Positions 9,986 to 36,486 of a stretch of DNA of 64,000 nucleotides are shown piece after piece (position 1 is the first letter of the stretch; each line of letters begins with the position of its first letter). The stretch covers positions 1 through 64,000 of the IMG/VR virus record IMGVR_UViG_3300037722_000226; one strand, given 5' to 3'. This DNA is from a virus. The notes beneath the pieces are model-generated. The model saw only the letters and a list, made by a program, of their open reading frames with translations. It was not told the DNA's origin and searched no databases. Both the position numbers and the translations under genes were made by a program.

Positions 9986-10014
9986 GACCAGCTTGCCGAG
10001 GTTTAATTGCCTGT

Positions 10015-19955: not shown

Positions 19956-19966
19956 ATCTTTCCTGC

Positions 19967-22410: not shown

Positions 22411-22634
22411 TACGGAGTCTCCTGCATCAGTTCATCGTGCTCCATTTCCAGATGCGTCACGCGCGCGATATCGTCCTGGATCGAAGACTCAAGCTCCGTC
22501 ACGTGCTGCCGGCGACGCGCGATGCGGATGTGCATGTCTCCGATCAGCCGCTCGAGGCGGGGCAAGGCACGCTTTCGGCCGGCGCGCGATTCCGGCACGC
22601 TGTCCATCGGTACTGCAACATCGCTCATGGTCAT
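22410..22634 (-). CDS. hypothetical coiled-coil protein (74 aa)
   Basis: Full ORF, overlapping its neighbours by 1-4 nt. Confidence 0.5.
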   Translation of the reverse strand: MTMSDVAVPMDSVPESRAGRKRALPRLERLIGDMHIRIARRRQHVTELESSIQDDIARVTHLEMEHDELMQETP

Positions 22635-23074
22635 GGCATCGTTCTCCCTTTGCGCTCGAGCTTGGTGATAAACCGCACGGCCCGGCGGATGACTTCGGCA
22701 ACCTGGATCGCCTCAGAGGCTTCCATCTCGATCGCGCTGGTGTGCTCCTTGAATTCAAGCTGAACCTTGCGCTGCTGGGTGACGTCGACCTTCATGGGTA
22801 GATGGTCTACGCCGGGCGGCACGGTGAGCACGCGCAGGCGCGCGCGGGCGAGGACCGCCATCCCAGCCTTGTCGAAGCTCTTGGACAGCCGCTCGGCCAG
22901 CTCAAGCGGCAGTATCAAACCGCCGGTCGCTTGCTGCAGCTCGAAAACCACCTTGCCGGTGTCGAGGTTCGCGTTCACACGCAGCGTCGGCGTCTCCGGG
23001 AGCTGCCTCTTGACGCCACGCAGACGGTCTGTGACCGCACGAGTGAAGCCGTCCATTGATGCCCCGATCTTCAT
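22631..23074 (-). CDS. hypothetical protein (147 aa)
   Basis: ATG at 23072-23074 in an ATGA overlap with the stop of the giant ORF. Confidence 0.55.
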   Translation of the reverse strand: MKIGASMDGFTRAVTDRLRGVKRQLPETPTLRVNANLDTGKVVFELQQATGGLILPLELAERLSKSFDKAGMAVLARARLRVLTVPPGVDHLPMKVDVTQQRKVQLEFKEHTSAIEMEASEAIQVAEVIRRAVRFITKLERKGRTMP

Positions 23075-26000
23075 TGTGGTGCCAACTTGCGACGTTCCTC
23101 CGCAACCTTGAGCCGCTTCCTGTTGATCGTTTCGACCTCTGACATATAGAACTCGAGGTCGATCCGGCGCCGCGTGTAGTCTCGTGCGAGCGCGTTGAGC
23201 TGCGTGTTCAGCGCCCGCTCCACGGTATCGAGCCGGTTCATAGCATACTGCCGATTCAGCGCAACGTCGTGCGGTTTGAGCTTGAGCCCGATCGAGCTGC
23301 TGATCGCAAGCGGCACACTGTACTCCCGCATCATCGGGTCCAGCTCGCCGGTCCAGGCCGACATGATCTTGCTGAAGTACCAGCTCCCAGGAACCCACGG
23401 AGCGGACGGCGCGGCCGACTTCCAAAGGAAATTCGCCACCTTGGCGGCCTTCTCGCCCCCAGAGTCCGTCAGGTCATTGGTGATTTCGTCGCCAGTGAAG
23501 CCCTGCTTATTGAGCATGTACTCGGCAGCGATCATCAGCGGGCCGCCGAATTGGAACGGCGCCGGGATCGGCAGCGCGCTCGAGCCCTGATTAAAGTCGA
23601 AGATGTCGCCGGCCGGGATATACCGCCGCGTGTCGAGAAAAATAGGATTCCCCCAGGCATCGTTGAACGGCGTGCGCAGCATGCGGTAGACCCCGACCCA
23701 GCTACGCCCGCGCTCTTCATCGCGAAGCGTCGCGCGCTCTTCATCCTCGTCGTCGAGATCGCCAGCGATCAAATAGCCGAGCGTGTTGAGCAGGTACGCG
23801 ACCGTGAAATACTTCGCGAGTTTCCACGGCCGATCGGCAATGGACTCGGCCACGACCGGCACGGCTCGGTAGGTATACGCGATGAACGGCAGCACGGTTT
23901 CGCGCAGCGCGTTGATCCACGGCGCACGGATGTCGTAGTTCAGAAATTGGTCGCGCGCGGCGATGGCTGCTCTGTCCGGCGTCATTCCCAAGCTCACCTT
24001 TCGCATGTAGGTCGCCATACGAAATATCTCGTCCTCGAGCCGATAGAGATCGAGACTCTTCTGGTCGGCATTCTTGATCATGCTCAGCACGCGCGTCATG
24101 ACTCCCCAGAGGCCCGTGCGCGACTCGGCTAGGTTCTGGCCCTCGATCTCTGCGAGGATCGGCTTCAGCACGTTGTCGCGGATCTCTTGCGAAATGACGT
24201 CGGCGCCGAAAGCGCCGTGCTGCAAGGCTGCTTTATAGTGCTCGTCCTTTTCTATGAACGATCGTAGGCCGCCAACGAAGTCACGCAGCCGCACGTCGGC
24301 CATGTCCATGAGCAAGATGTTGCTCATGATGTTATTGAAGTGCACGACGGGATTGCGGGCAGTTTTATTTAGCTTCCACTGCTTCATGACTTCGCGCCAG
24401 AACCCGGCCTTCTGCATCCGGCCGATCTCCACCATGTCGCGCCAAATCTCCGACCGCACGTACATGCCGGCGAGCGCGCCGTAGCGATAGGTGTTCGATT
24501 TCTCGATCTTCGTCTCGGGCACGCGGACCCAATCGGCATCGGCGTACATCCTGAGCCGGCTCTCTTCGGCGTTCGGGCTGTCGCCAGTCGGGTCCGTCTT
24601 GCTTGACCACTCAGGATTCGATGCGATGTCGTGGAAAAAGCGCCCGGATGCCAAGTCATGCGCCATCTGCTGATAGGTTTTCGCAATGGCGTAGCGCGCA
24701 TCGACGATCTCGCCCATCTGCTCGCGTTCTTCGGCCGTGAAGTCGCGCCACAGCACCAAATTACCACTGCCGACGTCGCGAACCTGAAAGATCCCGCGGT
24801 TCTCGAGCGCCGCGAACTTCGCCGGGACGGCAAGGTCGGCCGGCCAATAGATGCGCTGAAGCACGCGCTCTTTGATGGTCTTTGGCACGATGCCTTCGGC
24901 GTCTGACGTGCCTGCACCGGGCGCGCTTACGCGATCGAACACGCGGAACTTCGATCCGAGCAGCGCCGTATCGGGACGCCCCTTATGCTTTTTCCGCCCC
25001 CACCAATCCTCGGGAGCGTCGCTCAGAACGCGGTCCATGCTCTTCTTCAGGAAGATTCCGCGACCCTTGAACTGGTTGCCGATGATGCGGCGGCGGCGCT
25101 GCGTCATCACGTCGCTGGCGAACTTCGCGAGCGACGTGCGATTGGCCTCGTGATGCTTGTACGAGCGATGCAGATACGCGCCGCGGTTGCGCTCGTAGCT
25201 CTCAGCCGAGATCAATCCCAGCTCCACGGCTTCGGCGCCCATCGCGTCGATCGCCGCGCGGATCGGCACGGCGAGCCCGGCCATGTGCGAGTCCGTGACC
25301 TCTCCGCCGGTCAGCATGCGGTGCATCGTCTCAGCTTCCTTGCTGCCTACCCCTTGGTTCATGAGATCCGTCAGCACGTCCCGGCCTTCCATAAGCATCC
25401 CGCGCTCGTCAGCCTGGCGCTTGATGTCCCGCTCGACGTACTCCTTGGCGAGCCCGTAGCGATCGATCAGGCCGCGCTTGGCGGTCTCCATTGCGTGCGT
25501 GAACTTGTCGTCGATGCCGTACTTCTGAACCATGTCGCGATGCACCATGCCGGCCGTGTGGCGCAGCCAGCGAAACCGCGGCGTCTGCATCATCGCGCGC
25601 GCGTTCGACACGGCGTTATTCGCGAATGTCTTGTAGGGTTGATGGACCTTGAACACGCCCAGCTCGTTGGTCGCGCCGAAGATCGCGAACGGGGCACGGA
25701 ACAGACGATCTAGCGGCTGACCCTTGCCGCTCTTTTGCAGCAATCCATCGGCGCCGACGAGCACGCCGCGGCCGACCGAGGCCATGAAGCTCTTGCTGCG
25801 CTTCACGGCTTCTTCGCCGGCCATCAAGTTAAGCTCTGCGTCGCTGGCCGGATCGGTGAGCATGTCCACGTCGCGACTCGCTTGCATGGTCTGCGCATGG
25901 ATCGCGTCATTTTCGACAGCCGTGATAGCGCTGTCGTCGATCTTCTTGACCGTGATCAGCTCGTCATTGAACACGACGAAGTTGCGCGTGGTGCGCTCGG

Positions 26001-29000
26001 CTTTATTGGAGCGCGAACCGGAGTCTCGATATTGGATGCCGGGAATACCGAGCGCCTCGAGCGCCATCGACGCCGCGCGACTGCTCGGGTCGCCCGTCGC
26101 GACCACGAGCGCCCCGTACATTCCGCCGCCGGTTGTGTTGGGCGCCTCGAGTGCGTCTTTCAGGCCGGCCGAATGGGCCTGATCGTATGACTTGGCCAGC
26201 GCGCGCAGTCGTTCGCGAAGCGCCGCCGGCAGCTTTGCGTCCCAATTCAGCATTCGATCGACAGCCTCGTCCGGGATCTCGACCTCGTAAACGTGGCCCT
26301 CGCCGTTGACCTGGATGTCTGTTGGGTCGACGTTCTTCAATAGCTTGGCCTCGTCGCGCATCTCGCGCGCGGCGTCGCTCCTGCCTGAGCGTTCTGCGCG
26401 CGCGGCGTATTTCTCAAGATTCGCCGCGGCCTTCCCGCGCCCGATCTTCTTGGCCATGTGGAGCGCCATCGCGCGCGGCTCGCCGAAGCTGTATACCCGC
26501 CCCTTGTACGTGACGCTCTCGTACTCCTGCTCGCCACGGGCCGCCTTGCCGGCGGTTTGGTACTCAGTGGCAACCGCCTTCATCTCGGCGAAGTAGAGTC
26601 CCCACCCGAACGCCTGAACGCCCTCGCCATCGCCAATCTTGTCGAGCCTGAAATTGCCGAACCGATGCCGCGAGCCGTGGTACGCAACCATCAGATTCGC
26701 GGTCGCGTCGGCTTGGCTCATTGCTGTGTGCACCGGAGCGCCAGCGCCGGTCTTAGCGTAGCGCGACGCCTGCCGGATCAGATCGCGAGCCTCGAGCGTC
26801 GTCAGACTGAACGACGCGCCGAAGATCGACTGCAGCATGCGGTTCAGCGCAAGCACGAAGCGCCCGAAGGCGTTCTTCATGCGCTGACTCGCGGTGCCAG
26901 CCTCCATCTCGGTCGCGATCCACGCGACGATCTCGTTTCCGACGATGTTGCGGCCGGCGTTGGTTCGCATGTCCGCCCGATACGACTGCGCCAGCTCGAC
27001 GGCCATCTTCGGGAACGTCCGCAGCATGAAGTCGGCGACCATTCGGTAGTTCGAGCCGAAATACTGATAGGCCGCGTAGTGCCCCAGGATCTCGTGCACG
27101 ACCGTCTGCGTGAGCTGCCGCTTGCTCGTGATGTTATCGGCGAAGATCCACACGGCATTGCGCTCTTGAACATGCAGCCCGCGCGCCGTGCGCCGCGGAT
27201 CACGGCGATCGAGACTCTGTTTCAAGTCTTCTGGCATGCCGAGCATCTCGGCGCGCGTCGTGACGATCAGCCTGGCCGGTATGTTTTCCCAGCGAGCCGT
27301 GAACCGTTCTACAAACGCCCGCGCGGCCTTGACACCGATGCCTTTGCCCTTCTCGGCAGCCGAGCCGATGATCGGCTCTGCATCCATGTCGATGTCAGAG
27401 TCGGCCCTATCGGGCCTTGGCTCGGCAGAAGATCCTCCATCGCGACCGGCGATCTCGCGCGCGGCCTTCAAGTTTTCAATCGCCTGGAATGCAGCGCCGG
27501 CACGCTTCAGTGCGTCGATGACGGTCGCGGCCTGCACTTCGGAGATGTCCGCGCGCATTCGGTTTCCGACGCTCACGAAATCCTGGCCGATCGCGTTCAG
27601 CACCGCGCGATTCAGGTAGTACCGGCCGCCGCCGCTCTTTGCGGACAAGACCTCGATACGCAGCCCATCGCCGTTCTGTTTGATCAAGACGGCGTTGTCG
27701 CTCGAGTGCGCTTCGTGGCCAGTCCGCACGAATTCGACGACCTGATCGGCTCTACGCAGCGCGACCGGCATATCGGCCTGCGCCTTATCGTAGTTATAGC
27801 CGCGCGGCATGATGATGCCCTGGCGCACGCCGCCATCGGCATCGGTGAAGTTGATGATCGAGCCGCGGCCGCCGACGTGCTCGAAGCCGGCAAGTAGGTT
27901 CCCCGTGACGAGCGTCCGCTCTTCGCGTGCCTCGGCTTGCAGCTCATCGAACGCGCGGATCACTGTGACGTCGCCGAGGATGTGCTTCTCCGGCATGATC
28001 GCGCTGCGCGTCATCGAGAGATCGCCGACCGTCTGCGCGACGTCGAGCTGGCTCATCGGGATCGTCTGACGCCGCGACGAATCGGCCATCGCGAGCGTGA
28101 CTTTCCACGATCCGAGCGCAACCGGGTTTTTCGGCTCGCCCTTCTGCTCGACCTTGATGACGACGCCGTAGTAGTTGCCGGCGTTCGTCTGAATGCGCAC
28201 AGACTGGCCAACGAACGCCACGGACATCAGATCGCGGAAGCGGCTGACTTGCCCGTCTATTCTGGCATTGGCGTTGTCGCGCGCTTCCGGCGTTTCGAGA
28301 TCGTCGACGATTTCTCGACGGTACTCCCGCACGAGACCTTCGACTCGAGCGACGGTTTCTGAGGCGGCGGCGCGGCCGCGCAGCAACGCCGGACCCATGT
28401 CATCGGCTGAAAGTCTCGAAGGCTCGATGCCAAGCTCTTCGGCAATGAACGCGAGTACTTCCTCCGTCTTGTGCGGTTTGCCCAACCGCTTCACATCGGC
28501 CTTCTCGACGTAGACGCCATCGGCGAACGGGCTGTCGATGCCCTGCGGCGCGATGACTTGCTTGCGGTCGGTTACGCGCGCATCGAGCGCGAGCGTCCGG
28601 GCCTCGAGCACAGACTCGCCAGCGGCCTCTTTCTGGCGAAGCAAATCTTCGTACTCGGTCTCGAGCAGTTCATAGATATGCTCCTGCTCTTCGATCGGCA
28701 GCAACGGAATTCTGCCCGTGACCTTCCGCGCGGCATCGAGATAATCGAAGCCATCTTCGTCAGGCTCGCCCAGCGGCTTCCCGAGCTTCTTGTGGATCTC
28801 GTAATTGTCGGCCATGAGACGGGCCGCGATGATGTCGCCGTACTCGTTCATGAAGTCCGGCACGTTCTCGGCCTTGAGCGCGTGGCCGCGGCTCGCCGTG
28901 GTGTTGGCGTTCAAGCTCGCCATCTTCTTCGATAGCACAGCTGCCGGGCGCTTCACCGCCGGCACGTCGGCCACGAGCTGATCGTACTCGGGGAGCACGA

Positions 29001-32000
29001 CCTGTCCCGTGCGGTTGATGCGGCCAAGCATCTGCATGTGCGTATCGATGTTCTTCTCGGCCTGAGCAATGATCATTCGGCGCTTGCGCTGATCCTTGAA
29101 CTTCTCGCTCGCATGCAGAGACAGGCCCGTGCTGCCGGCCTGGTTGATGATCATCGCGTCGAGGTCGCCGCGGTTGAACCCTGAGATCGTCTCGCGGCGG
29201 CCGCGGATGCTGGTCTCGCGCGATGAACGCACGCGATAGAACGGCCCGCCCTTGCCGTAGTCGAGCGTGTGCTGCCGCCCCGTGATCTCGCCGACCTTAT
29301 AGCCGGCCTCGGAGAGCCGATTGCGGATATGGTCGATCGGCGAGACCGGCAGCGCGCTGAAGTCCATGTTGCGAATGATCTCGCGCGTGCTTTCGTAGAT
29401 GCCCACACCGATCGGCCCGATCTCGTCGTCGGTCAGGTATTTGCGCTCGCCTTTGCCCTTCTGGAATGGCTTGCGCAGCGTGATCCAGCGCGTGCGCTCG
29501 AGGTAGCGGTTAAGCAGCGCGTTGAAGTCGATCGCGATCTTGTCGCCCTGGTTGATGTTGAGCCCTTCAACGAATTCTTCGATGAACGCGCCCATCGTGT
29601 TCGAGACCGTGATGACGGGCTTTTCGCCTTTCTTCAAAGCCTCGATCGCCTGCGTTGCAGCCGCGTCAGACGTGATCGACAACAGCATTTGGTCGATCAG
29701 GTTGTGCATGATCGCCGTGAAGTTGGTCGACGCCGCGCCAGCACCGCCGGTCGATCCGTCTCCGGTGATCGACTTGCCCTCTGATTTCAGCTCCCTGTCG
29801 ATGCGCTTGGTGGCAGCCGGGACGAATTTCTCGCTGAACTCCTGAATCATCGCGAGCGCGCGGCTGTAGTCGGCGTAAGACTTGCGCGAGACGTTGACGG
29901 TTGTCGCGTTGTACACGATGCCGTCGAACGACCGCTCGCGGCGCATGTACTGACCGGCGCCCGCGAGCATCGACGCAACGACTTGCTGCATCGGCACGCC
30001 GCCCTTCTGGATCGCTTCGGCAAGATTCGAGATGTCCGATACGGCGAGTCGCATGTCGGTGCTCGCGTATAAGTCCATCACATCCGGGCGCTTCGCGTAG
30101 GTAGCCGAGCTATAGAACACGCCATGCGCGATTTGCGCGAGCTGCCGGGCGAATGTCGATCGGTTGACGATCGGCTTCTTGCCCTCCATCTGCTTCACAG
30201 ATCCGCCAGCATTGTGGCTTTCGTCGAACATCACGATGCCGCCATTGGCCATCGTCTCGAGAAAGCGCATGCGCGGCGTGACATCGCCCTTCAACGTCTG
30301 CATCTGCGAGTACGTTGTGAAAACCACATCGTATTGGCCAAGCGTGCCGGACTCTGCAATTTCGTCGAGCAGCCTGTTGTGCTCTTGAGCGCCGCCTGAT
30401 TTCAGCGTGTATTTGCCTTCTTCGTCGAGCGGCACCGCCTGAGCGGAATTGGTCATCAGAATATTGACTTCCCTGCCAAGCATCTTCTGAATGCCGATGT
30501 CCGTGAGGTCACGGTACATATCGCCGTAGAGGTTCGGCTTCTCGGTAACGAAGATCGGCGTGCGCTTCGCGCGGATCGCATAGCGGATCACGCCGGCCAC
30601 AACTCGGCCCTTACCAACGCCAGTTTGATCGCCGACGATGAATCCGGCACCGCGCTCGAGGTTATCGAGACCGAGCGCCAGCGCGTCGACTTGCTCGGCG
30701 CCGAAATACTCGCTCAGTTCGTCGGGCTTGTAGTCGAGGCGATCGGCGACGAATTGCTCGATGCTGCCGACGCGGCGCTTCAGCGACTCAAGCGCATCCT
30801 CCATCGCCGTCTGCATGTTGACGGGCACGAGCGTACCCATCGACGGCGCAGTGCTCGCCGGGCGGTACGGGACTTGGAGAAGTGATTCGCCTTCGGCGGC
30901 AGTTACCGCAACACGTCGAGGACGTCGTTCAGCGTCGTCACCGCGCTCGGCTTCGGCAGGCTTTCGCGGCTCAGGTTCAGCCGGTCGAGTATCGCCGGGT
31001 TCTCGCTCCAAAGGTCGGTCACGAATTGCTGCGGGTTCGACCGGCGCGGGCTGCTCGCGCTGTCGATCAGGCCGCGCTTCTCCGCTTCGGCCGCGATCTC
31101 GTTCATCGCGGTCTGCGGGTCGCTGCTCGATCGAATCACGCTCTCGAACCGGCGGCCGTAGGCCGACAGGAGCGCTTTCGTATTGAGCATCGAGTTTCTC
31201 CGCTAACGATTCCCAGGACTCATAGAGCCTTGGCGGCTGCACCGCGGGGAGCGGCATGGATGATTTGCCGCGCCCGCGGATCACGATCACGTCAATCGGC
31301 CATCCGGCGCCCTGCTTTTCGTACAGCTCGCCGGCCACCGTGAAGTGGTCGACGACATTGTACTGCGCATAGAGCTTGAGATAGAACTCCCGCTTGGCCT
31401 TGGAGTTGTAGGCATCCGATCGCGCCTCTTCGCTCCGGGCGAGCTTGTTGATCGAGCCGACGATCAGGACGCCGGAGCCGTCGTCTCTCATGACGTCGAG
31501 CGCCTTCATCGAGATGGCGTGATCGATCTCGCCCGTGCTGTATTCGTCGTCGACCTGGAAGCGCTCGGTCTGGCCGCGCTCGTTTTTCACGACGCCAAAT
31601 GGCGGATTACCTATGACCACATCGAAGGTGCCGCGTGGCTTCCAGCGTGCGGCGTCGTTCTCTGTGACGTCGACAAATGGCATCGTCGCGCGCAGATTCG
31701 CGGCCCGGTCGGCGTTCAGCTCGTTTGCCTTGACCATACCGGCGTCGGCCGCCTGGACGGCAGTCATGAGCAGCGCGCCGTTGCCGGCGGACGGTTCGTA
31801 GACCGTCGAATTTGACGTAATGCCAGCGGCTTGCGCAGCGAGATAGGCCAACGGCACCGGAGTCGAGTACGCCTGCTCGGCGACGCTCGTGCTCGTGCGC
31901 GTGCCCAAGCGAGGCATCTGCGCATACAGCGCCACGAGCTTCCCGTAGATCACACGCGGCGTGCCGCCGGCCATCACGATCTCGCGCGCGCGCATCGTGG

Positions 32001-35000
32001 CGCCCAGCTCGATCGCCTCATCAACCATCTTCGCATCGGCCGTGCCAGACTTCACATTGCGGCCGAGCACTTCGGCCGCGGCGCGGCGCGCTTGAATGAT
32101 CGACCCGAATCCGTCGCCGCTCGCAAAGAGGCGCGCGAACATACGGCCGAGCTTCACGACTTCGGATGCATCTCGCTCGGCGCGCGCCGATTCAAAATCA
32201 GTGATGCCCATGCTGCCAGCGCCTGGACGGAGTGGGGCGACTTCATTGATGTCAATTTCGCCGCCTACCAAAGCCCATAATTCGCTGCCGATCTCTTCCA
32301 GCTCAGCATCCGAAAGATCGCCATCTCCAGTCTCTTCCGCATGAGCCCGACCCATCTCAATCAATTCATGTTTGGTCGGCTCTCGCCGCGCGCGCGCGGC
32401 AGCGAAATCAGCGACGGGCTTAGTCTCTCGCGGCTCACTCGACGTGCTTTCCGAAATCGTGCGGTCCCGCAAACCGATGCGGATCGTGGTAATGGCGACG
32501 TCATCAGACTTTCCCGTAACCGGCTTCTTGCTCTCGCTCTGTGCCCACGCGGCGAACTTGGCCGGCTCCATCGGCATGATGCCACTGAAAATTCGAGCGG
32601 AAATGTTGTCGCTGTAAGAGCTGGCGAACGCCTCAAGCGCAGCCTGTGCCGACTCGAAGCCGATCATGACCTTGTGCTCGTCGAACGTCTTGCCGTCACT
32701 GAGCTTGTTCGTGTCGATGACGTACACGGGCAGCGTTTCGTCACTCGCGCGCGGACCCAAGAACGCATCGAGCTTGTCGCCGTCCGCACCCTCGACGTCG
32801 CCGCGCGCGTAGTGCGCTGGCATCTTGTTGAACCATGACTCGTCGCGCATCTTCCGCAATCGGTCGGCCAGTGCCCGCGTCCTGCCGAGATCACCGCCAG
32901 CTCCGCGGAGATTGCGCTCGAAGCTCTTCGCGGCCTCGAACGCTTCAGGAATGCGCCCGCCGCGCAGAAGATCGAGGACTCGTTCGTGCTCTGTCGCCCC
33001 GACGTAGCTCTTTGCCTGCTTCGCCACGTCGATCAGCGTTTGCTCATCGAACTTGAACCGATACGAGCCCTTCGGATTCTCGACTTTCCACGTGACGCCG
33101 TGGAGCTTCACGGGCTCGCCGAGCTTGTAGTTGCCCTCGCCGTTCGCTTCCTTCTGCGCCTGCGTCGGCTGCGGTCGATCGTTCTGCGGCGACGTCGCGG
33201 CGGCGTGCGCGGCGGCGTCGATGTCTTTCTGAGTCAGCGCCGCGGCCGCGACGTCGGCTTTCTCGACGTCGGCGCCGCTGTCCATCTCATCGGCGAACTC
33301 GGCCGCGCGCGGATCGTACTTCACGGCCATGTACCAGCTCTTGAGGTACGGCCGGATGGCGTCTCCCAAGTCGTCGATCATCGCCTTCGAGTACGCCGCG
33401 AACGTGCGCGCGCCCTTCTCGATGTGATAACCGGCGAGCGTGATGCCCGCCTGCATCATCTCCGGGTCGATGCCGGCGCTCGCGGTCCCGAGCTTCGATT
33501 TCAGGAGCGCGCGCGCCTTGGCCGCGGCGTCCTCGGTGAAGATTTTGTTCGGGGATGCTTTCGGCTTCTGCTTCTCGAATGCGCCAGCTCGACGAAGCGC
33601 ATCGCGCTGCGCTGATTCAGGCGTGTCGCCGTAACCCCTTTCCGAACTCCACGGAGACAGCCGTCTGGCAACGGCTGAATACTTGCCGCCGCGAACCTGT
33701 TGTTCTTGTGCGGATGTTACCGCTTGCGCCGGATCGACCTCGAAGCCTTGAGGCGCAGTTGTTATCGGCGTCGCGGTCGGCCCAGCTCCAGTCCCACGCT
33801 CTTCTTCCGTCAGATAGTCGTCGCTGCGCGCATCGCGATCAACACCCGTCCGCATACCCTCGCGAGTCGGAACGAGACTCACGGTTTCGCTTACCCGGAC
33901 GCCGCTCTCGGCGTAGGAGCGCACGCCGCTCGCGTCCTCGTAGATCGGCAAGCCGCGGGCGTTGCGGCCGATGGCGCCTGGCGGTATGGGTCCGGTTACT
34001 TCCCTCTCGCCCGCGGGTTGAACCGCGGCCTCTTCACTCCGTACTGCGGCGCGCGCACCTTCGGCGGCTGAATCTTCTTTTCCGGTCTTGGGCGGTTTAG
34101 CACGGGTCGATTGGCCATCGGCGGCATCCTTTACTTTGCGACGCGGGGTTGCGTCAGTGATGATGATTGGCTTGCGCGCAGCGCGCGCGGCGTCGGCTAT
34201 GCGGTCGGCTTCTTCGCCGCGGGGAGCTTGATCTTGATCTGCCAGCCCTTCCCCACGCCGGCTTCTTCGAGTCGCGCCTGGAGGCTGCTCACCGCGGCCC
34301 GCGCGGACCCCTTGGGTTTCGCGCTCTTGTTTGTGCTGTCGGAGTTGCTGGTCTGCTTCATTTAATGTGCTGCCAGTGCCATAGCTTATCCCAAGTCCTT
34401 CGAGAGTGATCGTTTCTCCGTCTGGGGATGTGGCCTCGATGGTGGCCATCGCCAGGCGCTCTTCGATGTGCTCCATGATGCCGGCGATTTCTTCAGGCGT
34501 GGCGCCCTCGATCGCGAACTCGTCACCCGACAAGTGATAGCCGCGATCCGTCGCGTTGCCGATCGCATCGCCGATCGCGCGCAGCATTTCATCGCCGGCT
34601 TGGTGGCCGAGCGAGTCGTTCACCCATTTGAGCGAATCAGCGTCGATGGCAACCTGGATCGGCTGTCGTTCCGCTTCGTCGTAGGCGCGGCGGTTCCTGA
34701 GTCCTGTCAGCTGGCTCGTCAGTAGCTCTGCCCGCATTTCCTCGGGAGTCATTTCCGACACGCGGGACCGGCGAGCGATGTCCTGCCGGCGGTCTTGGTC
34801 ACGCCGATCGGCCGGCGTCTGGGCGCGTACCTCCGCATCGATTTCCAGGTCGATCTCATCGAGCACGATGCCAACGGCTCTCTGCTCGCGGCCGGTCAGC
34901 TGCTCTCCGGCAATCGCTTTATCGATCGCAGTTTGGACCGCGCGCACCGTCATGCGCGGCTGCATGTTCTGAAACCACGCCGGATTGGTTGACGACGTGC

Positions 35001-36477
35001 GGCCCGTGATGCGGTCGTGCTCGTCTCGAACGTAGGCCACGCCGCCACCGGGCGTCAGATCACGGCCCATGCTCTCGAGCAGGCCGCGGTAGGTCTCTTC
35101 ACCGAGCCGTGGATCGAAAGGCTCGGCGGCCGGCGTTTCAGCCGACACGCCGATTTCGTCGCCGAGAATGGCCTCGGCATCGACCGAGCCTTGTGGGACG
35201 CCAGCGGGCGGCGGCGCGCCCGGCTGGGTCGGTTGAACAATAGGCGGGATTTCCTCGTCCGGGCCGAGCCGATCGCCTTCCCCGCGCAACCCCGTGTCAG
35301 TACGTCCAGCTCGGTCAGTACGCCCGGCTCGCTCAGGAGAGGCCGCTCCCATACCGGCGCCGAGCATGGCGCCCGACAGCGCGCCGCCGACTGCTTCCTC
35401 GAGCACGTTGTCCCAAAGGTCTCGATCGAATCCGGCGTTGCGCATGGCGATGTTCTGCGACATCGCTTCTGTGCCGGACTGAAAGAACTCCTGCAGCGCT
35501 TCTATGCTGCCGCCCTTCAACGCGCTTTTGATCAGGCCGAGATCCCGCGGCTTCAATCCGAAGGCCGACGTCATCATGGCACCGGCCGGAGCCGACAGCA
35601 TGAACGTCGTGACCAGGGTGAGCGCCGCCGCATCGCCGCTCGCGGCGCTCGCAATAATCTCCCTGGACTTCTGAAAACGCTCTCCCGGCGCCAGCCCGGA
35701 CAGCGACTCGAAAACCGCTCGGTAGTCGGCGGACTCCAGTAGCTCGTCATGGGTCATGCCCATGACCTCGCCCTGAACTTCCGCGCCGGACATCGGCGCC
35801 GCGACGCCGGCCTCGCCTAACCCGTAGCCGACTGCTGCAGCGGTTCGCGCGCCCGCGCCCGCAGCGGCAAAACTGCGCGCGAGTACGCCGCCAGCTCCGA
35901 TCCCGCCGAGCGTCGCTGGTAGCGAGCCGATCGCCATGACCTTCGCCTTGTTCCACTTATCGCCGAAGGAGCCCTGGCCCAGAAACTCAACTTCCATCGC
36001 GCGCCGTGCGGTTGGCGAGAGTCCTTCCTCCGTGATGCCGATCGCGTCCAGGTTGGTCCTGATCCACGTATCGGCAGCCTCGTGGCCTTGCTCTTGTATC
36101 CAGCGGCCAAGCTCTTCGCCCTTGACCGGCTTGCCCAGCTCCATCGGCCTGCCGCGAAGATCCAGCGGCCGCCCTTCGGCATCGCGCGGCGCAATATTCT
36201 CTCCAATCTCGCTCGCGCGCTTGCTGAACTTCTCGAGCATCCATCCCAAGCCGGCACCCATGCTCGCGAACGTCGACATCGCCATGCGGCCGTAGTCCGA
36301 CCACTCGAGCGGTTCCTCGGGGCTCCCGATCGGCCGGCGGCCTTTGATGCTGACGAGCGGCGTGCGCGGCGTCGAGTCCGTTGCCGACCCAACACCCTCT
36401 AGCGAAGGCGAAGTAGCAATTTGATCGGCAGCGGGCTCGGCCGGAACCGGCCTACGATTCAGGATCGTGACGGGCAT
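23071..36477 (-). CDS. giant polyvalent virion-module protein (4,468 aa)
   Basis: Single uninterrupted ORF. Motifs verified at nucleotide level: SGDEF (34516-34530), DGDKLD (32767-32784), NPPF (31597-31608), DESH (30214-30225), HEILGH (27079-27096). Flanked upstream by internal-virion-like proteins. Confidence 0.9.
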   Translation of the reverse strand: MPVTILNRRPVPAEPAADQIATSPSLEGVGSATDSTPRTPLVSIKGRRPIGSPEEPLEWSDYGRMAMSTFASMGAGLGWMLEKFSKRASEIGENIAPRDAEGRPLDLRGRPMELGKPVKGEELGRWIQEQGHEAADTWIRTNLDAIGITEEGLSPTARRAMEVEFLGQGSFGDKWNKAKVMAIGSLPATLGGIGAGGVLARSFAAAGAGARTAAAVGYGLGEAGVAAPMSGAEVQGEVMGMTHDELLESADYRAVFESLSGLAPGERFQKSREIIASAASGDAAALTLVTTFMLSAPAGAMMTSAFGLKPRDLGLIKSALKGGSIEALQEFFQSGTEAMSQNIAMRNAGFDRDLWDNVLEEAVGGALSGAMLGAGMGAASPERAGRTDRAGRTDTGLRGEGDRLGPDEEIPPIVQPTQPGAPPPAGVPQGSVDAEAILGDEIGVSAETPAAEPFDPRLGEETYRGLLESMGRDLTPGGGVAYVRDEHDRITGRTSSTNPAWFQNMQPRMTVRAVQTAIDKAIAGEQLTGREQRAVGIVLDEIDLEIDAEVRAQTPADRRDQDRRQDIARRSRVSEMTPEEMRAELLTSQLTGLRNRRAYDEAERQPIQVAIDADSLKWVNDSLGHQAGDEMLRAIGDAIGNATDRGYHLSGDEFAIEGATPEEIAGIMEHIEERLAMATIEATSPDGETITLEGLGISYGTGSTLNEADQQLRQHKQERETQGVRAGRGEQPPGATRRSRRGEGLADQDQAPRGEEADRIADAARAARKPIIITDATPRRKVKDAADGQSTRAKPPKTGKEDSAAEGARAAVRSEEAAVQPAGEREVTGPIPPGAIGRNARGLPIYEDASGVRSYAESGVRVSETVSLVPTREGMRTGVDRDARSDDYLTEEERGTGAGPTATPITTAPQGFEVDPAQAVTSAQEQQVRGGKYSAVARRLSPWSSERGYGDTPESAQRDALRRAGAFEKQKPKASPNKIFTEDAAAKARALLKSKLGTASAGIDPEMMQAGITLAGYHIEKGARTFAAYSKAMIDDLGDAIRPYLKSWYMAVKYDPRAAEFADEMDSGADVEKADVAAAALTQKDIDAAAHAAATSPQNDRPQPTQAQKEANGEGNYKLGEPVKLHGVTWKVENPKGSYRFKFDEQTLIDVAKQAKSYVGATEHERVLDLLRGGRIPEAFEAAKSFERNLRGAGGDLGRTRALADRLRKMRDESWFNKMPAHYARGDVEGADGDKLDAFLGPRASDETLPVYVIDTNKLSDGKTFDEHKVMIGFESAQAALEAFASSYSDNISARIFSGIMPMEPAKFAAWAQSESKKPVTGKSDDVAITTIRIGLRDRTISESTSSEPRETKPVADFAAARARREPTKHELIEMGRAHAEETGDGDLSDAELEEIGSELWALVGGEIDINEVAPLRPGAGSMGITDFESARAERDASEVVKLGRMFARLFASGDGFGSIIQARRAAAEVLGRNVKSGTADAKMVDEAIELGATMRAREIVMAGGTPRVIYGKLVALYAQMPRLGTRTSTSVAEQAYSTPVPLAYLAAQAAGITSNSTVYEPSAGNGALLMTAVQAADAGMVKANELNADRAANLRATMPFVDVTENDAARWKPRGTFDVVIGNPPFGVVKNERGQTERFQVDDEYSTGEIDHAISMKALDVMRDDGSGVLIVGSINKLARSEEARSDAYNSKAKREFYLKLYAQYNVVDHFTVAGELYEKQGAGWPIDVIVIRGRGKSSMPLPAVQPPRLYESWESLAEKLDAQYESAPVGLRPPVRERDSIEQRPADRDERDRGRSGEARPDRQREQPAPVEPAAIRDRPLEREPGDTRPAEPEPRKPAEAERGDDAERRPRRVAVTAAEGESLLQVPYRPASTAPSMGTLVPVNMQTAMEDALESLKRRVGSIEQFVADRLDYKPDELSEYFGAEQVDALALGLDNLERGAGFIVGDQTGVGKGRVVAGVIRYAIRAKRTPIFVTEKPNLYGDMYRDLTDIGIQKMLGREVNILMTNSAQAVPLDEEGKYTLKSGGAQEHNRLLDEIAESGTLGQYDVVFTTYSQMQTLKGDVTPRMRFLETMANGGIVMFDESHNAGGSVKQMEGKKPIVNRSTFARQLAQIAHGVFYSSATYAKRPDVMDLYASTDMRLAVSDISNLAEAIQKGGVPMQQVVASMLAGAGQYMRRERSFDGIVYNATTVNVSRKSYADYSRALAMIQEFSEKFVPAATKRIDRELKSEGKSITGDGSTGGAGAASTNFTAIMHNLIDQMLLSITSDAAATQAIEALKKGEKPVITVSNTMGAFIEEFVEGLNINQGDKIAIDFNALLNRYLERTRWITLRKPFQKGKGERKYLTDDEIGPIGVGIYESTREIIRNMDFSALPVSPIDHIRNRLSEAGYKVGEITGRQHTLDYGKGGPFYRVRSSRETSIRGRRETISGFNRGDLDAMIINQAGSTGLSLHASEKFKDQRKRRMIIAQAEKNIDTHMQMLGRINRTGQVVLPEYDQLVADVPAVKRPAAVLSKKMASLNANTTASRGHALKAENVPDFMNEYGDIIAARLMADNYEIHKKLGKPLGEPDEDGFDYLDAARKVTGRIPLLPIEEQEHIYELLETEYEDLLRQKEAAGESVLEARTLALDARVTDRKQVIAPQGIDSPFADGVYVEKADVKRLGKPHKTEEVLAFIAEELGIEPSRLSADDMGPALLRGRAAASETVARVEGLVREYRREIVDDLETPEARDNANARIDGQVSRFRDLMSVAFVGQSVRIQTNAGNYYGVVIKVEQKGEPKNPVALGSWKVTLAMADSSRRQTIPMSQLDVAQTVGDLSMTRSAIMPEKHILGDVTVIRAFDELQAEAREERTLVTGNLLAGFEHVGGRGSIINFTDADGGVRQGIIMPRGYNYDKAQADMPVALRRADQVVEFVRTGHEAHSSDNAVLIKQNGDGLRIEVLSAKSGGGRYYLNRAVLNAIGQDFVSVGNRMRADISEVQAATVIDALKRAGAAFQAIENLKAAREIAGRDGGSSAEPRPDRADSDIDMDAEPIIGSAAEKGKGIGVKAARAFVERFTARWENIPARLIVTTRAEMLGMPEDLKQSLDRRDPRRTARGLHVQERNAVWIFADNITSKRQLTQTVVHEILGHYAAYQYFGSNYRMVADFMLRTFPKMAVELAQSYRADMRTNAGRNIVGNEIVAWIATEMEAGTASQRMKNAFGRFVLALNRMLQSIFGASFSLTTLEARDLIRQASRYAKTGAGAPVHTAMSQADATANLMVAYHGSRHRFGNFRLDKIGDGEGVQAFGWGLYFAEMKAVATEYQTAGKAARGEQEYESVTYKGRVYSFGEPRAMALHMAKKIGRGKAAANLEKYAARAERSGRSDAAREMRDEAKLLKNVDPTDIQVNGEGHVYEVEIPDEAVDRMLNWDAKLPAALRERLRALAKSYDQAHSAGLKDALEAPNTTGGGMYGALVVATGDPSSRAASMALEALGIPGIQYRDSGSRSNKAERTTRNFVVFNDELITVKKIDDSAITAVENDAIHAQTMQASRDVDMLTDPASDAELNLMAGEEAVKRSKSFMASVGRGVLVGADGLLQKSGKGQPLDRLFRAPFAIFGATNELGVFKVHQPYKTFANNAVSNARAMMQTPRFRWLRHTAGMVHRDMVQKYGIDDKFTHAMETAKRGLIDRYGLAKEYVERDIKRQADERGMLMEGRDVLTDLMNQGVGSKEAETMHRMLTGGEVTDSHMAGLAVPIRAAIDAMGAEAVELGLISAESYERNRGAYLHRSYKHHEANRTSLAKFASDVMTQRRRRIIGNQFKGRGIFLKKSMDRVLSDAPEDWWGRKKHKGRPDTALLGSKFRVFDRVSAPGAGTSDAEGIVPKTIKERVLQRIYWPADLAVPAKFAALENRGIFQVRDVGSGNLVLWRDFTAEEREQMGEIVDARYAIAKTYQQMAHDLASGRFFHDIASNPEWSSKTDPTGDSPNAEESRLRMYADADWVRVPETKIEKSNTYRYGALAGMYVRSEIWRDMVEIGRMQKAGFWREVMKQWKLNKTARNPVVHFNNIMSNILLMDMADVRLRDFVGGLRSFIEKDEHYKAALQHGAFGADVISQEIRDNVLKPILAEIEGQNLAESRTGLWGVMTRVLSMIKNADQKSLDLYRLEDEIFRMATYMRKVSLGMTPDRAAIAARDQFLNYDIRAPWINALRETVLPFIAYTYRAVPVVAESIADRPWKLAKYFTVAYLLNTLGYLIAGDLDDEDEERATLRDEERGRSWVGVYRMLRTPFNDAWGNPIFLDTRRYIPAGDIFDFNQGSSALPIPAPFQFGGPLMIAAEYMLNKQGFTGDEITNDLTDSGGEKAAKVANFLWKSAAPSAPWVPGSWYFSKIMSAWTGELDPMMREYSVPLAISSSIGLKLKPHDVALNRQYAMNRLDTVERALNTQLNALARDYTRRRIDLEFYMSEVETINRKRLKVAEERRKLAPQ
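25942..26694 (-). other. ADP-ribosyltransferase-like (ART-PolyVal-like) domain, aa ~3262-3512
   Basis: AYHGSRHRFGNFRLDKIGDGEGVQAFGWGLYFAE ... GHVYEVEIPDEAVDRMLNWD ... GIPGIQYRDSGSR...NFVVFND gives an H-Y-E arrangement. The assignment is from memory of the family. Confidence 0.5.
28888..30705 (-). other. strawberry-notch-like SF2 helicase domain, aa ~1925-2530
   Basis: GDQTGVGKGR (motif I), MFDESHNAGG (motif II), INQAGSTGLSLH and QMLGRINRTGQ (motifs V/VI). Confidence 0.75.
31258..31980 (-). other. N6-adenine DNA methyltransferase domain (motif I then NPPF), aa ~1500-1740
   Basis: Motif I VYEPSAGNGALL and motif IV DVVIGNPPFG. Confidence 0.8.
32578..33126 (-). other. family-I inorganic-pyrophosphatase-like domain, aa ~1118-1300
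   Basis: KVENPKGSYRFKFDE resembles EIPKGSxNKYE. ADGDKLDAFLG matches the PPase signature D-[SGDN]-D-[PE]-[LIVMF]-D-[LIVMGAC] except for K at position 4. Followed by PVYVID...FDEHKVMIGF. Confidence 0.55.
34330..34722 (-). other. GGDEF-type (diguanylate-cyclase-like) domain, aa ~586-716 of the giant protein
   Basis: LTGLRNRRAY ... VAIDADSLKWVNDSLGHQAGDEML ... YHLSGDEFAI ... ISYGTG ... ADQQL follows the canonical GGDEF domain motif order. Confidence 0.7.
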
Positions 36478-36486
36478 TGATCGCCC

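Follow-up and report, generated by a model that had tools for sequence, protein, structure and literature searches.

A giant phage gene for a polyvalent protein whose non-enzymatic parts resemble, in order, parts of N4-type vRNAPs

Introduction

Polyvalent proteins, as described by Aravind and colleagues, join many unrelated enzymes in one polypeptide encoded among virion genes (Iyer et al. 2017; PMC5512222). They include LPD36-MTase-SWI2/SNF2 units, also of the Strawberry-notch (Sno) type, and one such protein, from Acetonema longum (WP_004096050.1), combines GGDEF, SWI2/SNF2, MTase, MPTase, and ART domains (PMC5512222). The InPase family PF18823 was defined from polyvalent proteins, and the H-Y-D active site of the ART-PolyVal/Tox-ART-HYD2 enzymes, with H in strand 1, Y in strand 2, and D in strand 5, was defined in the same study (PMC5512222). 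P1 DarB, which is packaged in the phage head, gives DNA cis-protection against type I restriction (PMC5512222). JC1 gp69, a giant DarB-like protein of Bcep22-type podophages, has been seen in purified virions by mass spectrometry.

Another described giant is gp50 of phage N4, one of the virion RNA polymerases (vRNAPs) of the Schitoviridae. This beads-on-a-string protein (~3,500 aa) is ejected into the host. Its NTD has been linked to injection and membrane association, inserts into nanodiscs, and contains putative membrane-spanning helices (residues 224-278), and its CTD/MPTase region is needed for encapsidation. Searches with the N4 NTD matched nothing beyond vRNAPs in the work of Iyer et al. 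(2017; PMC5512222).

Here, we analyzed a 64,000-nt stretch of viral DNA (the window; positions 1 to 64,000 of IMG/VR record IMGVR_UViG_3300037722_000226). Positions 23071-36477 are a genuine gene, and the giant polyvalent protein that it encodes is of a kind already known from phages. The enzyme repertoire of this protein is already known; what is new here is three non-enzymatic parts that appear collinear with parts of vRNAPs. Their sequence relationships suggest that a chassis for ejection and encapsidation, of the N4 type, has been loaded with antirestriction and signalling enzymes as cargo.

Results

Our ORF analysis of the window revealed an uninterrupted frame with an ATG start, 4,468 codons, and a single stop, which ends exactly at 23071 and 36477 (23071..36477, minus strand, as are the Shine-Dalgarno-like site and all domains below). 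This is the 13.4-kb single ORF that a sequence-only reading of the window, made without database searches, had singled out. It carries Pfam and PHROG domain matches and begins 9 nt past the point where the gene before it stops. The Shine-Dalgarno-like GAGGG (36484..36488) lies 6 nt 5' of the ATG and overlaps the stop codon of that gene (36487-36489). Megablast of the ORF against the phage records returned no match.

The chance that a random frame of 4,468 codons stays open is ~3e-58 at this base composition, and GC3 is coding-like across the whole ORF (0.78 overall, 0.80 to 0.85 in domains, and 0.57 to 0.67 in linkers). These values argue against an assembly or sequencing artefact, as does an independent metagenome contig (L006, protein P0058), in which the frame is unbroken through the helicase extension, the HExxH module, and the C-terminal module (last 1,745 aa; 73 to 78% identity to the giant protein). 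The frame might also be a recent accidental fusion of normally separate genes: ENA contigs L001 and L002 carry the C-terminal module as a gene of its own (1,038 to 1,223 aa) with a separate polyvalent gene before it, and the module in contig L049 is a 591-aa ORF. However, the ORF is complete in 47 of 80 related IMG/VR loci (median, 3,341 aa) and extends beyond the 10-kb flank in the other 33, so most of the 80 loci encode more than 2,000 aa. An artefact or accidental fusion is extremely improbable on these data.

Around the giant ORF, and on its strand, lie genes for the portal, the major capsid protein, virion proteins, and tail fibres; the order is portal, capsid, Bcep22 gp67-like protein, giant ORF, and tail fibres. 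The placement in a virion module with tail-fibre genes downstream, proposed from the sequence, is thus borne out. At 34 to 39% identity, the portal matches those of phages of the F116 type and related ones, with Burkholderia and Stx-converting phages among the matching records, and ORF w807 (807 aa; 40769-43192) is a homologue of Bcep22 gp67. Less held immediately upstream, where two internal-virion-like proteins had been claimed: one of the two ORFs has a weak PHROG virion-protein match (E 1.6e-7) and the other has none, and neither the 495-aa ORF (36487-37974) nor the 251-aa ORF (37974-38729) showed similarity to related loci. The phage carries further conflict-type genes, such as bpMoxR.

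This setting resembles that of the Bcep22-type giants. Bcep22 gp75, JC1 gp69, and PBC5 gp21-gp22 are likewise 4,500 to 4,600 aa long, take up about one-fifth of a ~60-kb genome, and belong to the virion module. Going by the JC1 paper and by our portal search of the window, head genes of the F116/933W type are also common to both, as is a gp67-like protein; the position of the gene relative to the tail fibres differs. The gene for N4 gp50, like the giant ORF, ends a run of virion genes. Unlike in N4, however, the portal of this phage is of the F116/933W type, and no relationship could be detected between the neighbours of the giant ORF and the N4 ejection proteins gp51 and gp52, to which neither the 495-aa nor the 251-aa upstream ORF showed similarity.

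The Gly/Ala-rich N-terminal region picked out by the sequence-only reading is a conserved domain. Two modules can be distinguished: N_A (aa ~56-385; 35323..36312), a Gly/Ala-rich, all-alpha bundle of long helices, and N_B (aa ~446-550; 34828..35142), a conserved module of ~100 aa that recurs around residues 500-750 in many giant proteins. An exhaustive representative search with aa 1-560, which hold both, returned 143 representative clusters at E<1e-10; a word-index search with the same query found nothing, and N_A had no match among 50,697 deposited phage records. N_A is N-terminal in 100 of the 150 listed proteins, and N_B is present in 58 of 150 representatives. Fold search with the AF2 model of N_A (pLDDT 87.4, pTM 0.84) gave no significant match in the PDB library. 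All top fold matches were membrane transporters, a likeness that we dropped at E>1.

Profile comparisons make a strong case that N_A is homologous to the NTD core of N4-like vRNAPs (N4 gp50 residues ~101-493). With hhalign, N_A aligned to the N4 NTD at a probability of 97.1% (E 4.9e-11), and profile-profile comparison with the vRNAP NTD gave 99.5% (E 1.6e-21); the hhalign score against the vRNAP NTD was 132.7, versus 20.9 for the best decoy. Six of nine vRNAPs were clear matches to the N_A HMM (22 to 44 bits), and one more was a weak match at 10 bits; among 909 decoys, none scored above 8.8 bits. Hydrophobicity along N_A has modest peaks at aa 180-198 and 274-302, and the putative membrane-spanning helices of N4 (residues 224-278) align with aa ~178-203 of the giant protein.

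A second part of the protein points, with moderate strength, in the same direction. The HEILGH motif noticed at aa 3128-3133 belongs to an HExxH...E zincin-like metallopeptidase module (aa ~3046-3262; 26692..27342), whose H3128, E3129, H3133, and E3182 vary little or not at all among 33 aligned homologues. Neither Pfam, MPTase-PolyVal included, nor a PDB sequence-profile search gave a match for this module. It aligned with the vRNAP MPTase region in hhalign at a probability of 73 to 81% (E 1e-6 to 3e-5) with a score of 48.7, compared to 22.4 for the best column-shuffled decoy, which is moderate evidence of homology. The module stands immediately upstream of the conserved C-terminal module in 40 of 80 relatives.

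That C-terminal module (C-module; aa ~3659-4468; 23074..25503) has 57 homologues at 24 to 59% identity, with 28 invariant columns. An alignment-based query located this unit of ~810 aa in 281 or more contigs of IMG/VR, where a scan with one protein as query had returned nothing, and the unit is also present at 52 genome loci. It almost always terminates ORFs of 2,000 to more than 4,100 aa with variable cargo, including cargoes that lack an MTase or a helicase. No Pfam model, LPD38 included, matched any of 42 members. The AF2 model (pLDDT 81.6, pTM 0.76) had no fold match in a PDB library that predates the experimental structure of the N4 vRNAP CTD, and it matched 62 BFVD entries; most of the entries listed are fragments of long viral proteins of the polyvalent type. 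Hydrophobic helices had been read into this region, but no 19-residue window exceeds a Kyte-Doolittle value of 1.3.

The core of the C-module (aa ~4040-4225) aligned with the extreme C-terminus of N4-like vRNAPs in hhalign at a probability of 86% (E 5e-6) and a score of 61.8, versus 27.1 for the best column-shuffled decoy. This result was obtained with -M first; the settings -norealign and -M 50 gave a spurious match only. The C-module HMM scored marginally against vRNAP sequences (8.3 bits versus 6.0 for the best decoy). Taken as moderate evidence, these alignments point to a remote homology between the two C-terminal cores.

The NTD core, HExxH MPTase, and C-terminal core thus appear in the same order in the giant protein and in N4-like vRNAPs, the first with strong and the other two with moderate support. 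The vRNAP polymerase HMM (--max, E<=10), however, did not match the giant protein, nor did it match any of the 150 proteins with N_A/N_B or the 80 giant ORFs with a C-module. Because a T7-like single-subunit RNA polymerase module is lacking, the giant protein is not a vRNAP: where N4 has its RNA polymerase, it carries GGDEF, InPase, MTase-Sno ATPase, and ART. N_A and the C-module occur together in a minority of relatives only, so the chassis is modular rather than fixed.

These relationships also bear on where the protein acts. It could be a cytoplasmic conflict protein, expressed late or from a prophage and serving, for instance, in superinfection exclusion or a toxin-like defence, whose gene lies amid structural genes by chance. 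Relatives are found in prophages of Alpha- and Betaproteobacteria, for example in Fulvimarina, Aureimonas, and Azospirillum, host domestication has been considered possible for some polyvalent-type proteins (Iyer et al. 2017; PMC5512222), and the other conflict-type genes of the phage would fit as well. The gene nevertheless lies on the structural-gene strand, 9 nt behind its neighbour and upstream of the tail fibres, and analogous giants have been detected in virions by mass spectrometry. The sequence relationship to parts of N4 gp50, whose ejection has experimental support, also argues against a cytoplasmic role, as does the comparably large share that the gene takes of most of the 80 related viral contigs examined (45 to 70 kb). 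We regard a non-virion protein as decidedly improbable. Packaging and ejection of the giant protein are plausible because N_A appears homologous to the N4 NTD and because a Bcep22/JC1-type giant has been detected in virions.

We then consider the enzymes. Two or more unrelated effector domains, encoded by a phage with its late genes, characterize a polyvalent protein. Here the gene lies in portal, capsid, and tail-fibre surroundings; GGDEF, InPase, AAA_34, and Helicase_C_4 scored above the Pfam cut-off, and the MTase, ART, and zincin draw support from motifs and homologues. Nearly all domains named in the sequence-only reading are borne out, as is its view of this as a multi-enzyme polyvalent protein in the sense of Aravind and colleagues. 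GGDEF, InPase (PF18823), LPD36-MTase-SWI2/SNF2, zincin MPTase, and H-Y-D ART are all shared with the proteins of Iyer et al. (PMC5512222). In contrast to those proteins, N_A and the C-module fit no Pfam LPD model.

The minimal GGDEF domain (aa 570-725; 34303..34770) was matched by PF00990 at aa 590-720 (E 2e-11; 44.2 bits versus a cut-off of 23.8) and by TIGR00254 (38.2 versus 37.4 bits), as its identification by eye had anticipated. It aligns with WspR and DosC and matches 27 PDB cyclases. The LTGLRNRR turn, D611/D613, N620-D621, GHQAGD, and SGDEF (650-654) are kept, and the RxxD inhibitory site is absent. Cyclase activity is uncertain because the first G of the signature is replaced by S (SGDEF) and the conserved Arg two residues before it by His.

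The inorganic-pyrophosphatase-like domain is a polyvalent-type InPase (aa ~1100-1320; 32518..33180) similar to that of PBC5 gp22. PF18823 matched it in two stretches (aa 1211-1312 and an N-terminal piece; E 2.7e-22; 79.5 bits versus a cut-off of 26.8). An insert of ~65 aa splits the first and second parts, and the acidic signature DGDKLD is present at aa 1232-1237. The sequence-only reading stated that the GGDEF and pyrophosphatase additions could not be placed in known examples. This is incorrect, because both were already described in polyvalent proteins by Iyer et al. (2017; PMC5512222), and such combinations of domains recur in the metagenomic relatives L026, L029, and P0212.

Between these two domains, the helical module reported at ~980-1060 is conserved over aa 951-1075 (33253..33627). 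It is common to the DarB-like giants of PBC5, Atu_ph08, and Bcep22 (61 to 63% identity to Atu_ph08 and PBC5 gp22; 44.5% to Bcep22 gp75) and matches phrog_10089 and phrog_938.

The central unit has a DarB-type layout, with an LPD36-type region, an NPPF N6A-MTase, and then an SF2 ATPase. An LPD36-like helical region (aa ~1426-1500; 31978..32202), assigned by motif and position only, precedes the MTase and contains a GxGU-type GDGFGS (aa 1454-1459). The gamma-class N6-adenine DNA MTase (aa ~1501-1745; 31243..31977), with its core at aa 1537-1690, matched Pfam models below the cut-off (Eco57I, E 6e-5; N6_Mtase, E 8e-3). Motif I (EPSAGNG, 1561-1567) and motif IV (NPPF, 1624-1627) are nevertheless present, and PHROG MTase families matched at up to 6e-17 (phrog_9133, 6e-17; phrog_3820, 1.8e-10), in keeping with the assignment made by eye. 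An Arg/Glu/Pro-rich linker, defined by composition (aa ~1746-1900; 30778..31242; GC3, 0.57), leads to a Sno-type SWI2/SNF2 ATPase (aa ~1901-2560) with a family-specific C-terminal extension (2561-3010; together 27448..30777). AAA_34 (aa 1942-2204; E 8.9e-26) and Helicase_C_4 (aa 2382-2549; E 1.4e-20) both scored above the Pfam cut-off. Walker A (GVGKGR, 1953), DESH (2085), and motif VI (2484) are present, and the extension is common to the Sno-family proteins P0059-P0074, all of which agrees with the strawberry-notch-type helicase proposed earlier.

The parallel with P1 DarB that had been drawn from this core holds in part. Both proteins fuse an N6A-MTase to an SF2 ATPase, and DarB may serve as a functional model for the central unit. 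However, tblastn with aa 1760-2526 against the 50,697 phage records returned three records, none of them P1. With similarity to P1 DarB absent at the level of BLAST, the parallel is architectural and does not extend to orthology. The helicase families differ (AAA_34 plus Helicase_C_4 of the Sno type here), and P1 DarB lacks N_A, GGDEF, InPase, and the C-module.

The Bcep22-type giants share with this protein the helical module (44 to 63% identity) and the MTase plus SF2 ATPase, and the InPase is common with PBC5. Bcep22 gp75 differs in starting with an SLT lytic transglycosylase and in carrying LPD3 and LPD38 as well as a helicase of the classical SNF2/ResIII type; GGDEF, InPase, and ART are missing from it. 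Its C-terminus aligns only weakly with the C-module. Unlike Bcep22 gp75 and PBC5 gp22, the giant protein yielded no peptidoglycan hydrolase domain.

One potential explanation for the whole protein, and the one that database annotation would give, is DarB-type antirestriction only, with P1-like Dar head packaging, cis-protection by the MTase-helicase as the sole activity of importance, and all other regions as passengers or spacers that play no part in ejection. The match to phrog_10089, annotated as "DarB-like antirestriction" (E 6.6e-66), would fit this, but it covers mostly the helical module, and BLAST identity to Bcep22 gp75 is confined to aa 958-1056. The MTase plus SF2 ATPase unit has intact motifs, and Bcep22, JC1, PBC5, and Parlo offer precedents; against P1 DarB, however, similarity is absent at the BLAST level, and the helicase is Sno-type rather than of the DarB family. 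Passenger status is also hard to reconcile with an N-terminal domain apparently homologous to the vRNAP injection domain and with a constant C-module that also accompanies cargoes without an MTase or helicase. We consider antirestriction alone unlikely.

The last enzyme is an ART-like cassette of the H-Y-D type with a ~170-aa insert (aa 3263-3535; 25873..26691). ART-PolyVal matched only its N-terminal third, below the cut-off (E 1.7e-5; 26.1 versus 31.2 bits). In an alignment of eight homologues, H3267 and Y3295 are conserved, and so is an acidic position within the VVFNDE strand (3501-3506), probably D3505; this pattern supports the ART-like domain noted earlier. The closest relative (P0058/L006) lacks only this cassette, an indel between close relatives.

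Discussion

We judge it likely that the giant gene encodes a polyvalent protein that is packaged and ejected, with antirestriction and signalling cargo on an N4-type chassis. Under this proposal, a single polypeptide of ~480 kDa would be produced alongside the virion proteins, enter the capsid, and be expelled into the host at infection, delivering several enzymes together. The chassis would consist of N_A, akin to the membrane- and ejectosome-associated NTD of N4, the zincin-like HExxH module, and the C-module, akin to the C-terminal region that N4 requires for encapsidation. GGDEF, InPase, and the DarB-like LPD36-MTase-Sno unit would be cargo in place of the N4 RNA polymerase, with the ART downstream of the peptidase. 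The constant ends may steer encapsidation and ejection. After ejection, the N-terminal domain could be anchored in the inner membrane at the site of DNA entry, and the MTase-translocase could work in cis on the entering DNA to protect it from restriction. The ART may modify host proteins, GGDEF and InPase may disturb nucleotide signalling or remove pyrophosphate, and the zincin may cleave the chain at the charged linkers into separate units. Packaging, ejection, membrane anchoring, all enzymatic activities, and proteolytic processing are what we infer from homology, motifs, and gene context.

A bolder version, to which we give a small chance, sees an RNAP-less N4-type ejection protein anchored by its N-terminal domain in the inner membrane at the DNA entry channel. 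Its Sno SWI2/SNF2 dsDNA translocase, in the place of the DNA-pulling polymerase of N4, would be a genome-reeling motor, with the MTase marking the DNA as it enters. N4 vRNAP would then be one cargo variant of a widespread delivery chassis of the form NTD-cargo-MPTase-CTD, in use among many phages outside the N4 group.

As one more polyvalent, DarB-like giant virion protein, the likely reading adds nothing to the catalogue of phage weapons. Its anatomy is useful: the constant ends have no match in the PDB library searched, and the cargo is reshuffled even between relatives that are 75% identical. Both ends and the zincin module appear related to those parts of N4 vRNAP on which membrane association, injection, and encapsidation depend. 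If this packaged and ejected chassis is real, it would join the literatures on polyvalent proteins and Schitoviridae ejectosomes. It would also give a testable answer to how effector arrays of half a megadalton are loaded into capsids and pass through a ~35 A channel, and it would offer portable "address" domains for delivering engineered cargo.

The minimal GGDEF domain has relatives outside this context. We rejected a link to the Panoptes/mCpol decoy-nucleotide system; the guanine-specifying residues predict c-di-GMP, and nothing connects the two. YuA-like Pseudomonas and Bordetella siphoviruses encode the same short domain (e.g., MP1412 gp43; 39 to 42% identity to aa 573-733) beside the anti-restriction gene klcA. 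Unlike the domain described here, these proteins are stand-alone, ~157 aa long, and encoded in a non-structural region, outside any virion polyprotein.

The giant ORF encodes a polyvalent protein in the morphogenesis module

The giant ORF is best read as encoding a virion-packaged, injected polyvalent protein built on a chassis like that of the virion RNA polymerase (vRNAP) of N4-like phages (Schitoviridae). The chassis would run in the order of N4 vRNAP, from N-terminal domain (NTD) through cargo and MPTase to C-terminal domain, and the cargo would comprise a DarB-like MTase-translocase, a GGDEF cyclase, a pyrophosphatase, and an ART. Only one point calls for specialist attention: the non-enzymatic parts resemble parts of N4 vRNAP in collinear order, and with this likeness ideas on how polyvalent proteins are packaged and ejected can be tested.

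The ORF listing of the window gave a single frame at 23071..36477 (-), with an ATG start and one, terminal, stop (4,468 aa). The gene is real and uninterrupted, as the sequence-only reading had proposed, and its estimated share of one fifth of the window was measured at 21%. The chance of 4,468 stop-free codons is ∼3e-58 at the window composition (62.6% GC). The GAGGG found 6 nt 5' of the ATG shares bases with the stop codon of the gene before it. GC3 is 0.78 overall, 0.80 to 0.85 in the domains, and 0.57 to 0.67 in the charged linkers. No nucleotide-level relative of the ORF was found among 50,697 phage records.

The genes around the giant ORF on the minus strand make up a phage morphogenesis module: a DNA MTase (57491-59167, 558 aa; phrog_67, E 4e-58), an ORF in terminase position (55100-57484, 794 aa), the portal (52910-55075; phrog_156, E 1e-140), the major capsid protein (49507-50739; phrog_334, E 4e-100), and an 807-aa protein (40769-43192; phrog_511; 35% identity with Bcep22 gp67), followed by four small or unknown ORFs before the giant ORF. 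Of the upstream pair described earlier as internal-virion-like, one member was so matched weakly (PHROG E 1.6e-7) and the other had no PHROG match. Downstream, a few small genes separate the giant ORF from the anticipated tail-fibre genes, of which there are two (19967-20968 and 18642-20081, both minus strand). The 794-aa ORF had faint TerL (phrog_15, E 2.5e-4) and HNH (phrog_5046, E 1.4e-4) matches and no Pfam match; it could be a divergent terminase or a terminase with an insertion. The portal is 34 to 39% identical to F116-type and related phage portals, and 409 records match it, Burkholderia and Stx-converting phages among them.

The DNA MTase sits inside the packaging module; in the annotation of Sinorhizobium phage PBC5, a DNA methyltransferase lies between the packaging genes and the portal. 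The tail-fibre ORFs (18642-20968, -) have homologues of 26 to 29% identity in the N4-like Pseudomonas phage ZC03 (L142 17383-18872), annotated there as "hypothetical protein." A small gene at ∼22631-23060 (-) directly 3' of the giant ORF shares 42% identity with its 136-aa counterpart after the giant gene in L006, the contig of the closest relative; the ORF listing holds it only within a longer TTG ORF (22631-23425) that overlaps the giant ORF 3' end.

Enzymatic cargo of the giant protein

A Pfam scan recovered the GGDEF (aa 590-720), pyrophosphatase (InPase PF18823, aa 1211-1312 plus an N-terminal piece beyond an insert of ∼65 aa), and helicase (AAA_34, aa 1942-2204; Helicase_C_4, aa 2382-2549) domains that had been recognized by eye, with Eco57I/N6_Mtase (aa 1537-1690) and ART-PolyVal/PARP (aa 3254-3313) below cut-off; PHROG, NCBIfam, and PDB-sequence searches concurred. 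The predicted N6A MTase retains its catalytic motifs EPSAGNG and NPPF. Also present are the ATPase motifs GVGKGR, DESH, and LGRINRTGQ, the pyrophosphatase signature DGDKLD, and an LPD36-like GxGU motif, GDGFGS. These domains may be enzymatically active.

Alignment of the GGDEF domain with WspR and DosC revealed that the LTGLxNRR turn, the metal-binding Asp residues, and the guanine-specifying Asn/Asp are kept. The signature is SGDEF, preceded by His in place of Arg, and the RxxD inhibitory site is absent. Stand-alone minimal GGDEF proteins of Pseudomonas phage MP1412 and many YuA-like/Bordetella phages share 39 to 42% identity with aa 573-733; the MP1412 gene (L003 5968-6438, 156 aa) adjoins the anti-restriction gene klcA. 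A query with aa 1-1500 returned 486 records, most of them GGDEF-region matches, mainly in Pseudomonas phages.

In the ART-like region, an alignment with seven homologues showed three conserved positions: H3267, Y3295, and, in the final strand (VVFNDE, aa 3501-3506), an acidic residue that is probably D3505. This H-Y-D arrangement is that of polyvalent-protein ARTs as described by Iyer et al., and the Pfam match is partial because of a variable insert of ∼170 aa. The HEILGH motif is part of a conserved module of ∼220 aa (HExxH module); among 33 homologues, H3128, E3129, H3133, and E3182 vary little or not at all. Pfam and PDB sequence searches with this module gave no match. It may act as a peptidase by which the giant protein cleaves itself. 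The helical module noted earlier (aa 951-1075) is conserved in DarB-like giant proteins, with 61 to 63% identity to parts of those of Atu_ph08 and PBC5 and 44.5% to Bcep22 gp75.

Polyvalent proteins were defined by Iyer et al. in 2017 (PMC5512222), who described in them GGDEF, InPase, zincin MPTases, and H-Y-D ARTs, the LPD36-MTase-SWI2/SNF2 unit (Strawberry-notch versions included), and one Acetonema prophage protein combining GGDEF, SNF2, MTase, MPTase, and ART. Assignment to the polyvalent class thus stands, but the GGDEF and InPase additions, which the sequence-only reading could not place in known examples, are not novel. Bcep22-type podophages carry a "DarB-like" protein of 4,500 to 4,600 aa, ∼22% of the genome, and one of these, JC1 gp69, was detected in purified virions by mass spectrometry (PMC9144972). 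By Pfam, Bcep22 gp75 reads SLT, MTase, SNF2, LPD3, LPD38, and PBC5 gp22 reads cell-wall hydrolase, VanY, InPase; the window protein thus combines its domains differently and has only a few modules in common with them.

Conserved terminal modules and turnover of the cargo

An exhaustive HMMER search with aa 1-560 matched 263 representative clusters (143 with E<1e-10) and resolved two modules, N_A (aa ∼56-385) and N_B (aa ∼446-550). Of the 150 listed proteins (118 to 6,276 aa), 100 have N_A as their N-terminal module and 58 contain N_B; N_A had no match in the 50,697 deposited phage records. Its AlphaFold2 model (pLDDT 87.4, pTM 0.84) is a long-helix bundle with no significant neighbour in the PDB.

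The last ∼810 aa (C-module) are strongly conserved in 57 database proteins (24 to 59% identity, 28 invariant columns). An alignment-based scan placed the C-module in at least 281 IMG/VR contigs (those fetched mostly 45 to 70 kb). Since its 52 bacterial genome loci show mostly 43 to 52% identity in Alphaproteobacteria and ∼33% in Burkholderiales, the comparison suggests that the nearest relatives are temperate phages of Alphaproteobacteria.

In nearly all of the 80 loci fetched, a giant ORF ends with the C-module. Complete ORFs were obtained at 47 of these loci (median, 3,341 aa), and the other 33 run past the 10-kb flank; those with the full flank available reach ∼4,100 aa or more. The HExxH module lies just upstream in 40 of the 80. 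The cargo varies (InPase, helical module, MTase-Sno, ART, GGDEF), and shorter C-module proteins carry other N-terminal domains (ART-PolyVal, RadC, MuF_C, Zeta toxin, glycoside hydrolase, LPD1, PRTase). One metagenomic relative (L026, 4,055 aa) has nearly the same domain set as the window protein, and GGDEF and InPase are also combined in L029 and P0212. Identity with the closest relative, P0058/L006, is 73% across aa 2488-3262 and 78% across aa 3536-4468; in place of the 273-aa ART cassette (25873-26691, -), whose GC3 (0.80) is no different from that of its flanks, this relative has ∼50 unrelated residues (L006 2300-2448). This swap shows that cassettes turn over at the level of domains within a gene that is otherwise collinear.

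In a few phages the C-module is a separate gene. Two ENA phage contigs of ∼63 kb show this (L001 5476-9828 and L002 3929-9553): upstream of the C-module gene stands a distinct polyvalent gene that carries ddrB-ParB and Zeta-toxin domains, joined in L002 by LPD23, so that the pair is a split version of the giant-gene arrangement. In L001, a GH25 lysin gene follows the C-module gene.

The non-enzymatic parts resemble N4 vRNAP

The AlphaFold2 model of the C-module (pLDDT 81.6, pTM 0.76) had no significant neighbour in the PDB, and its BFVD matches numbered 62 (E≤0.001). Most of the listed matches are fragments of long viral proteins, of which many bear the name polyvalent-protein-associated and some LPD38-containing; the C-module also aligns faintly with the Bcep22 gp75 C-terminus. 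One weak BFVD match was an N4-like vRNAP, which prompted a comparison of the modules with nine Schitoviridae vRNAPs, N4 gp50 among them.

N_A aligned with the vRNAP NTD (N4 residues ∼101-493) at a probability of 97.1% (E 4.9e-11) as a single sequence and 99.5% (E 1.6e-21, 317 columns) profile to profile, with an hhalign score of 132.7 versus 20.9 for the best decoy. The N_A HMM scored 22 to 44 bits on six vRNAPs; among 909 decoys made by local shuffling or reversal, the top score was 8.8 bits. The reverse search with the NTD HMM matched window aa 189-380. Iyer et al. recovered nothing outside vRNAPs with the N4 N-terminal region (PMC5512222), and our literature search found no earlier description of this link.

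The HExxH module aligned with the vRNAP region that Iyer et al. named MPTase (N4 residues ∼2107-2408; PMC5512222) at a probability of 73 to 81% (E 1e-6 to 3e-5; score 48.7, decoy 22.4), with the motif and the downstream Glu both matched. The C-module core (aa ∼4040-4225) aligned with the extreme vRNAP C-terminus (N4 residues ∼3216-3450) at a probability of 86% (E 5e-6, 184 columns; score 61.8, decoy 27.1), placing FLNYDIRAP opposite FINYDRLPG; its HMM-to-sequence score on vRNAPs was marginal. Both putative C-terminal links thus have moderate statistical support. N_A and the C-module occur together in only a minority of relatives. No match to the vRNAP polymerase-domain HMM was obtained in the window protein, in any of the 150 N_A/N_B proteins, or in any of the 80 C-module giant ORFs, and the neighbours upstream of the giant ORF had no detectable relationship to N4 gp51 or gp52.

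The N4 NTD has a role in injection and membrane association and inserts into nanodiscs, with putative membrane-spanning helices at residues 224-278 (PMC13434306, PMC13492108). Their counterpart in the alignment is window aa ∼178-203, the site of the first hydropathy peak. The giant protein has only modest peaks (aa 180-198 and 274-302), and none falls within the C-terminal 900 aa, where hydrophobic helices had been supposed. N_A may anchor the protein at the inner membrane after ejection. The vRNAP C-terminal region, including the MPTase, is needed for encapsidation (PMC13492108), and the matching modules of the giant protein may serve in its packaging.

Other genes in the window

No tRNA genes were found in the 64,000 nt. 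Downstream of a bpMoxR-type AAA ATPase gene (2378-3523, +; PF20030, E 1.7e-51), a 675-aa ORF (3660-5687, +) carries a phage zinc-finger domain; the two may constitute a phage-borne MoxR-vWA-type conflict system. The non-structural left part also holds ORFs at 9326-10390 (-) and 15078-16667 (+), one with a UDG-superfamily domain and the other encoding an SbcC/AAA_15-like ATPase.
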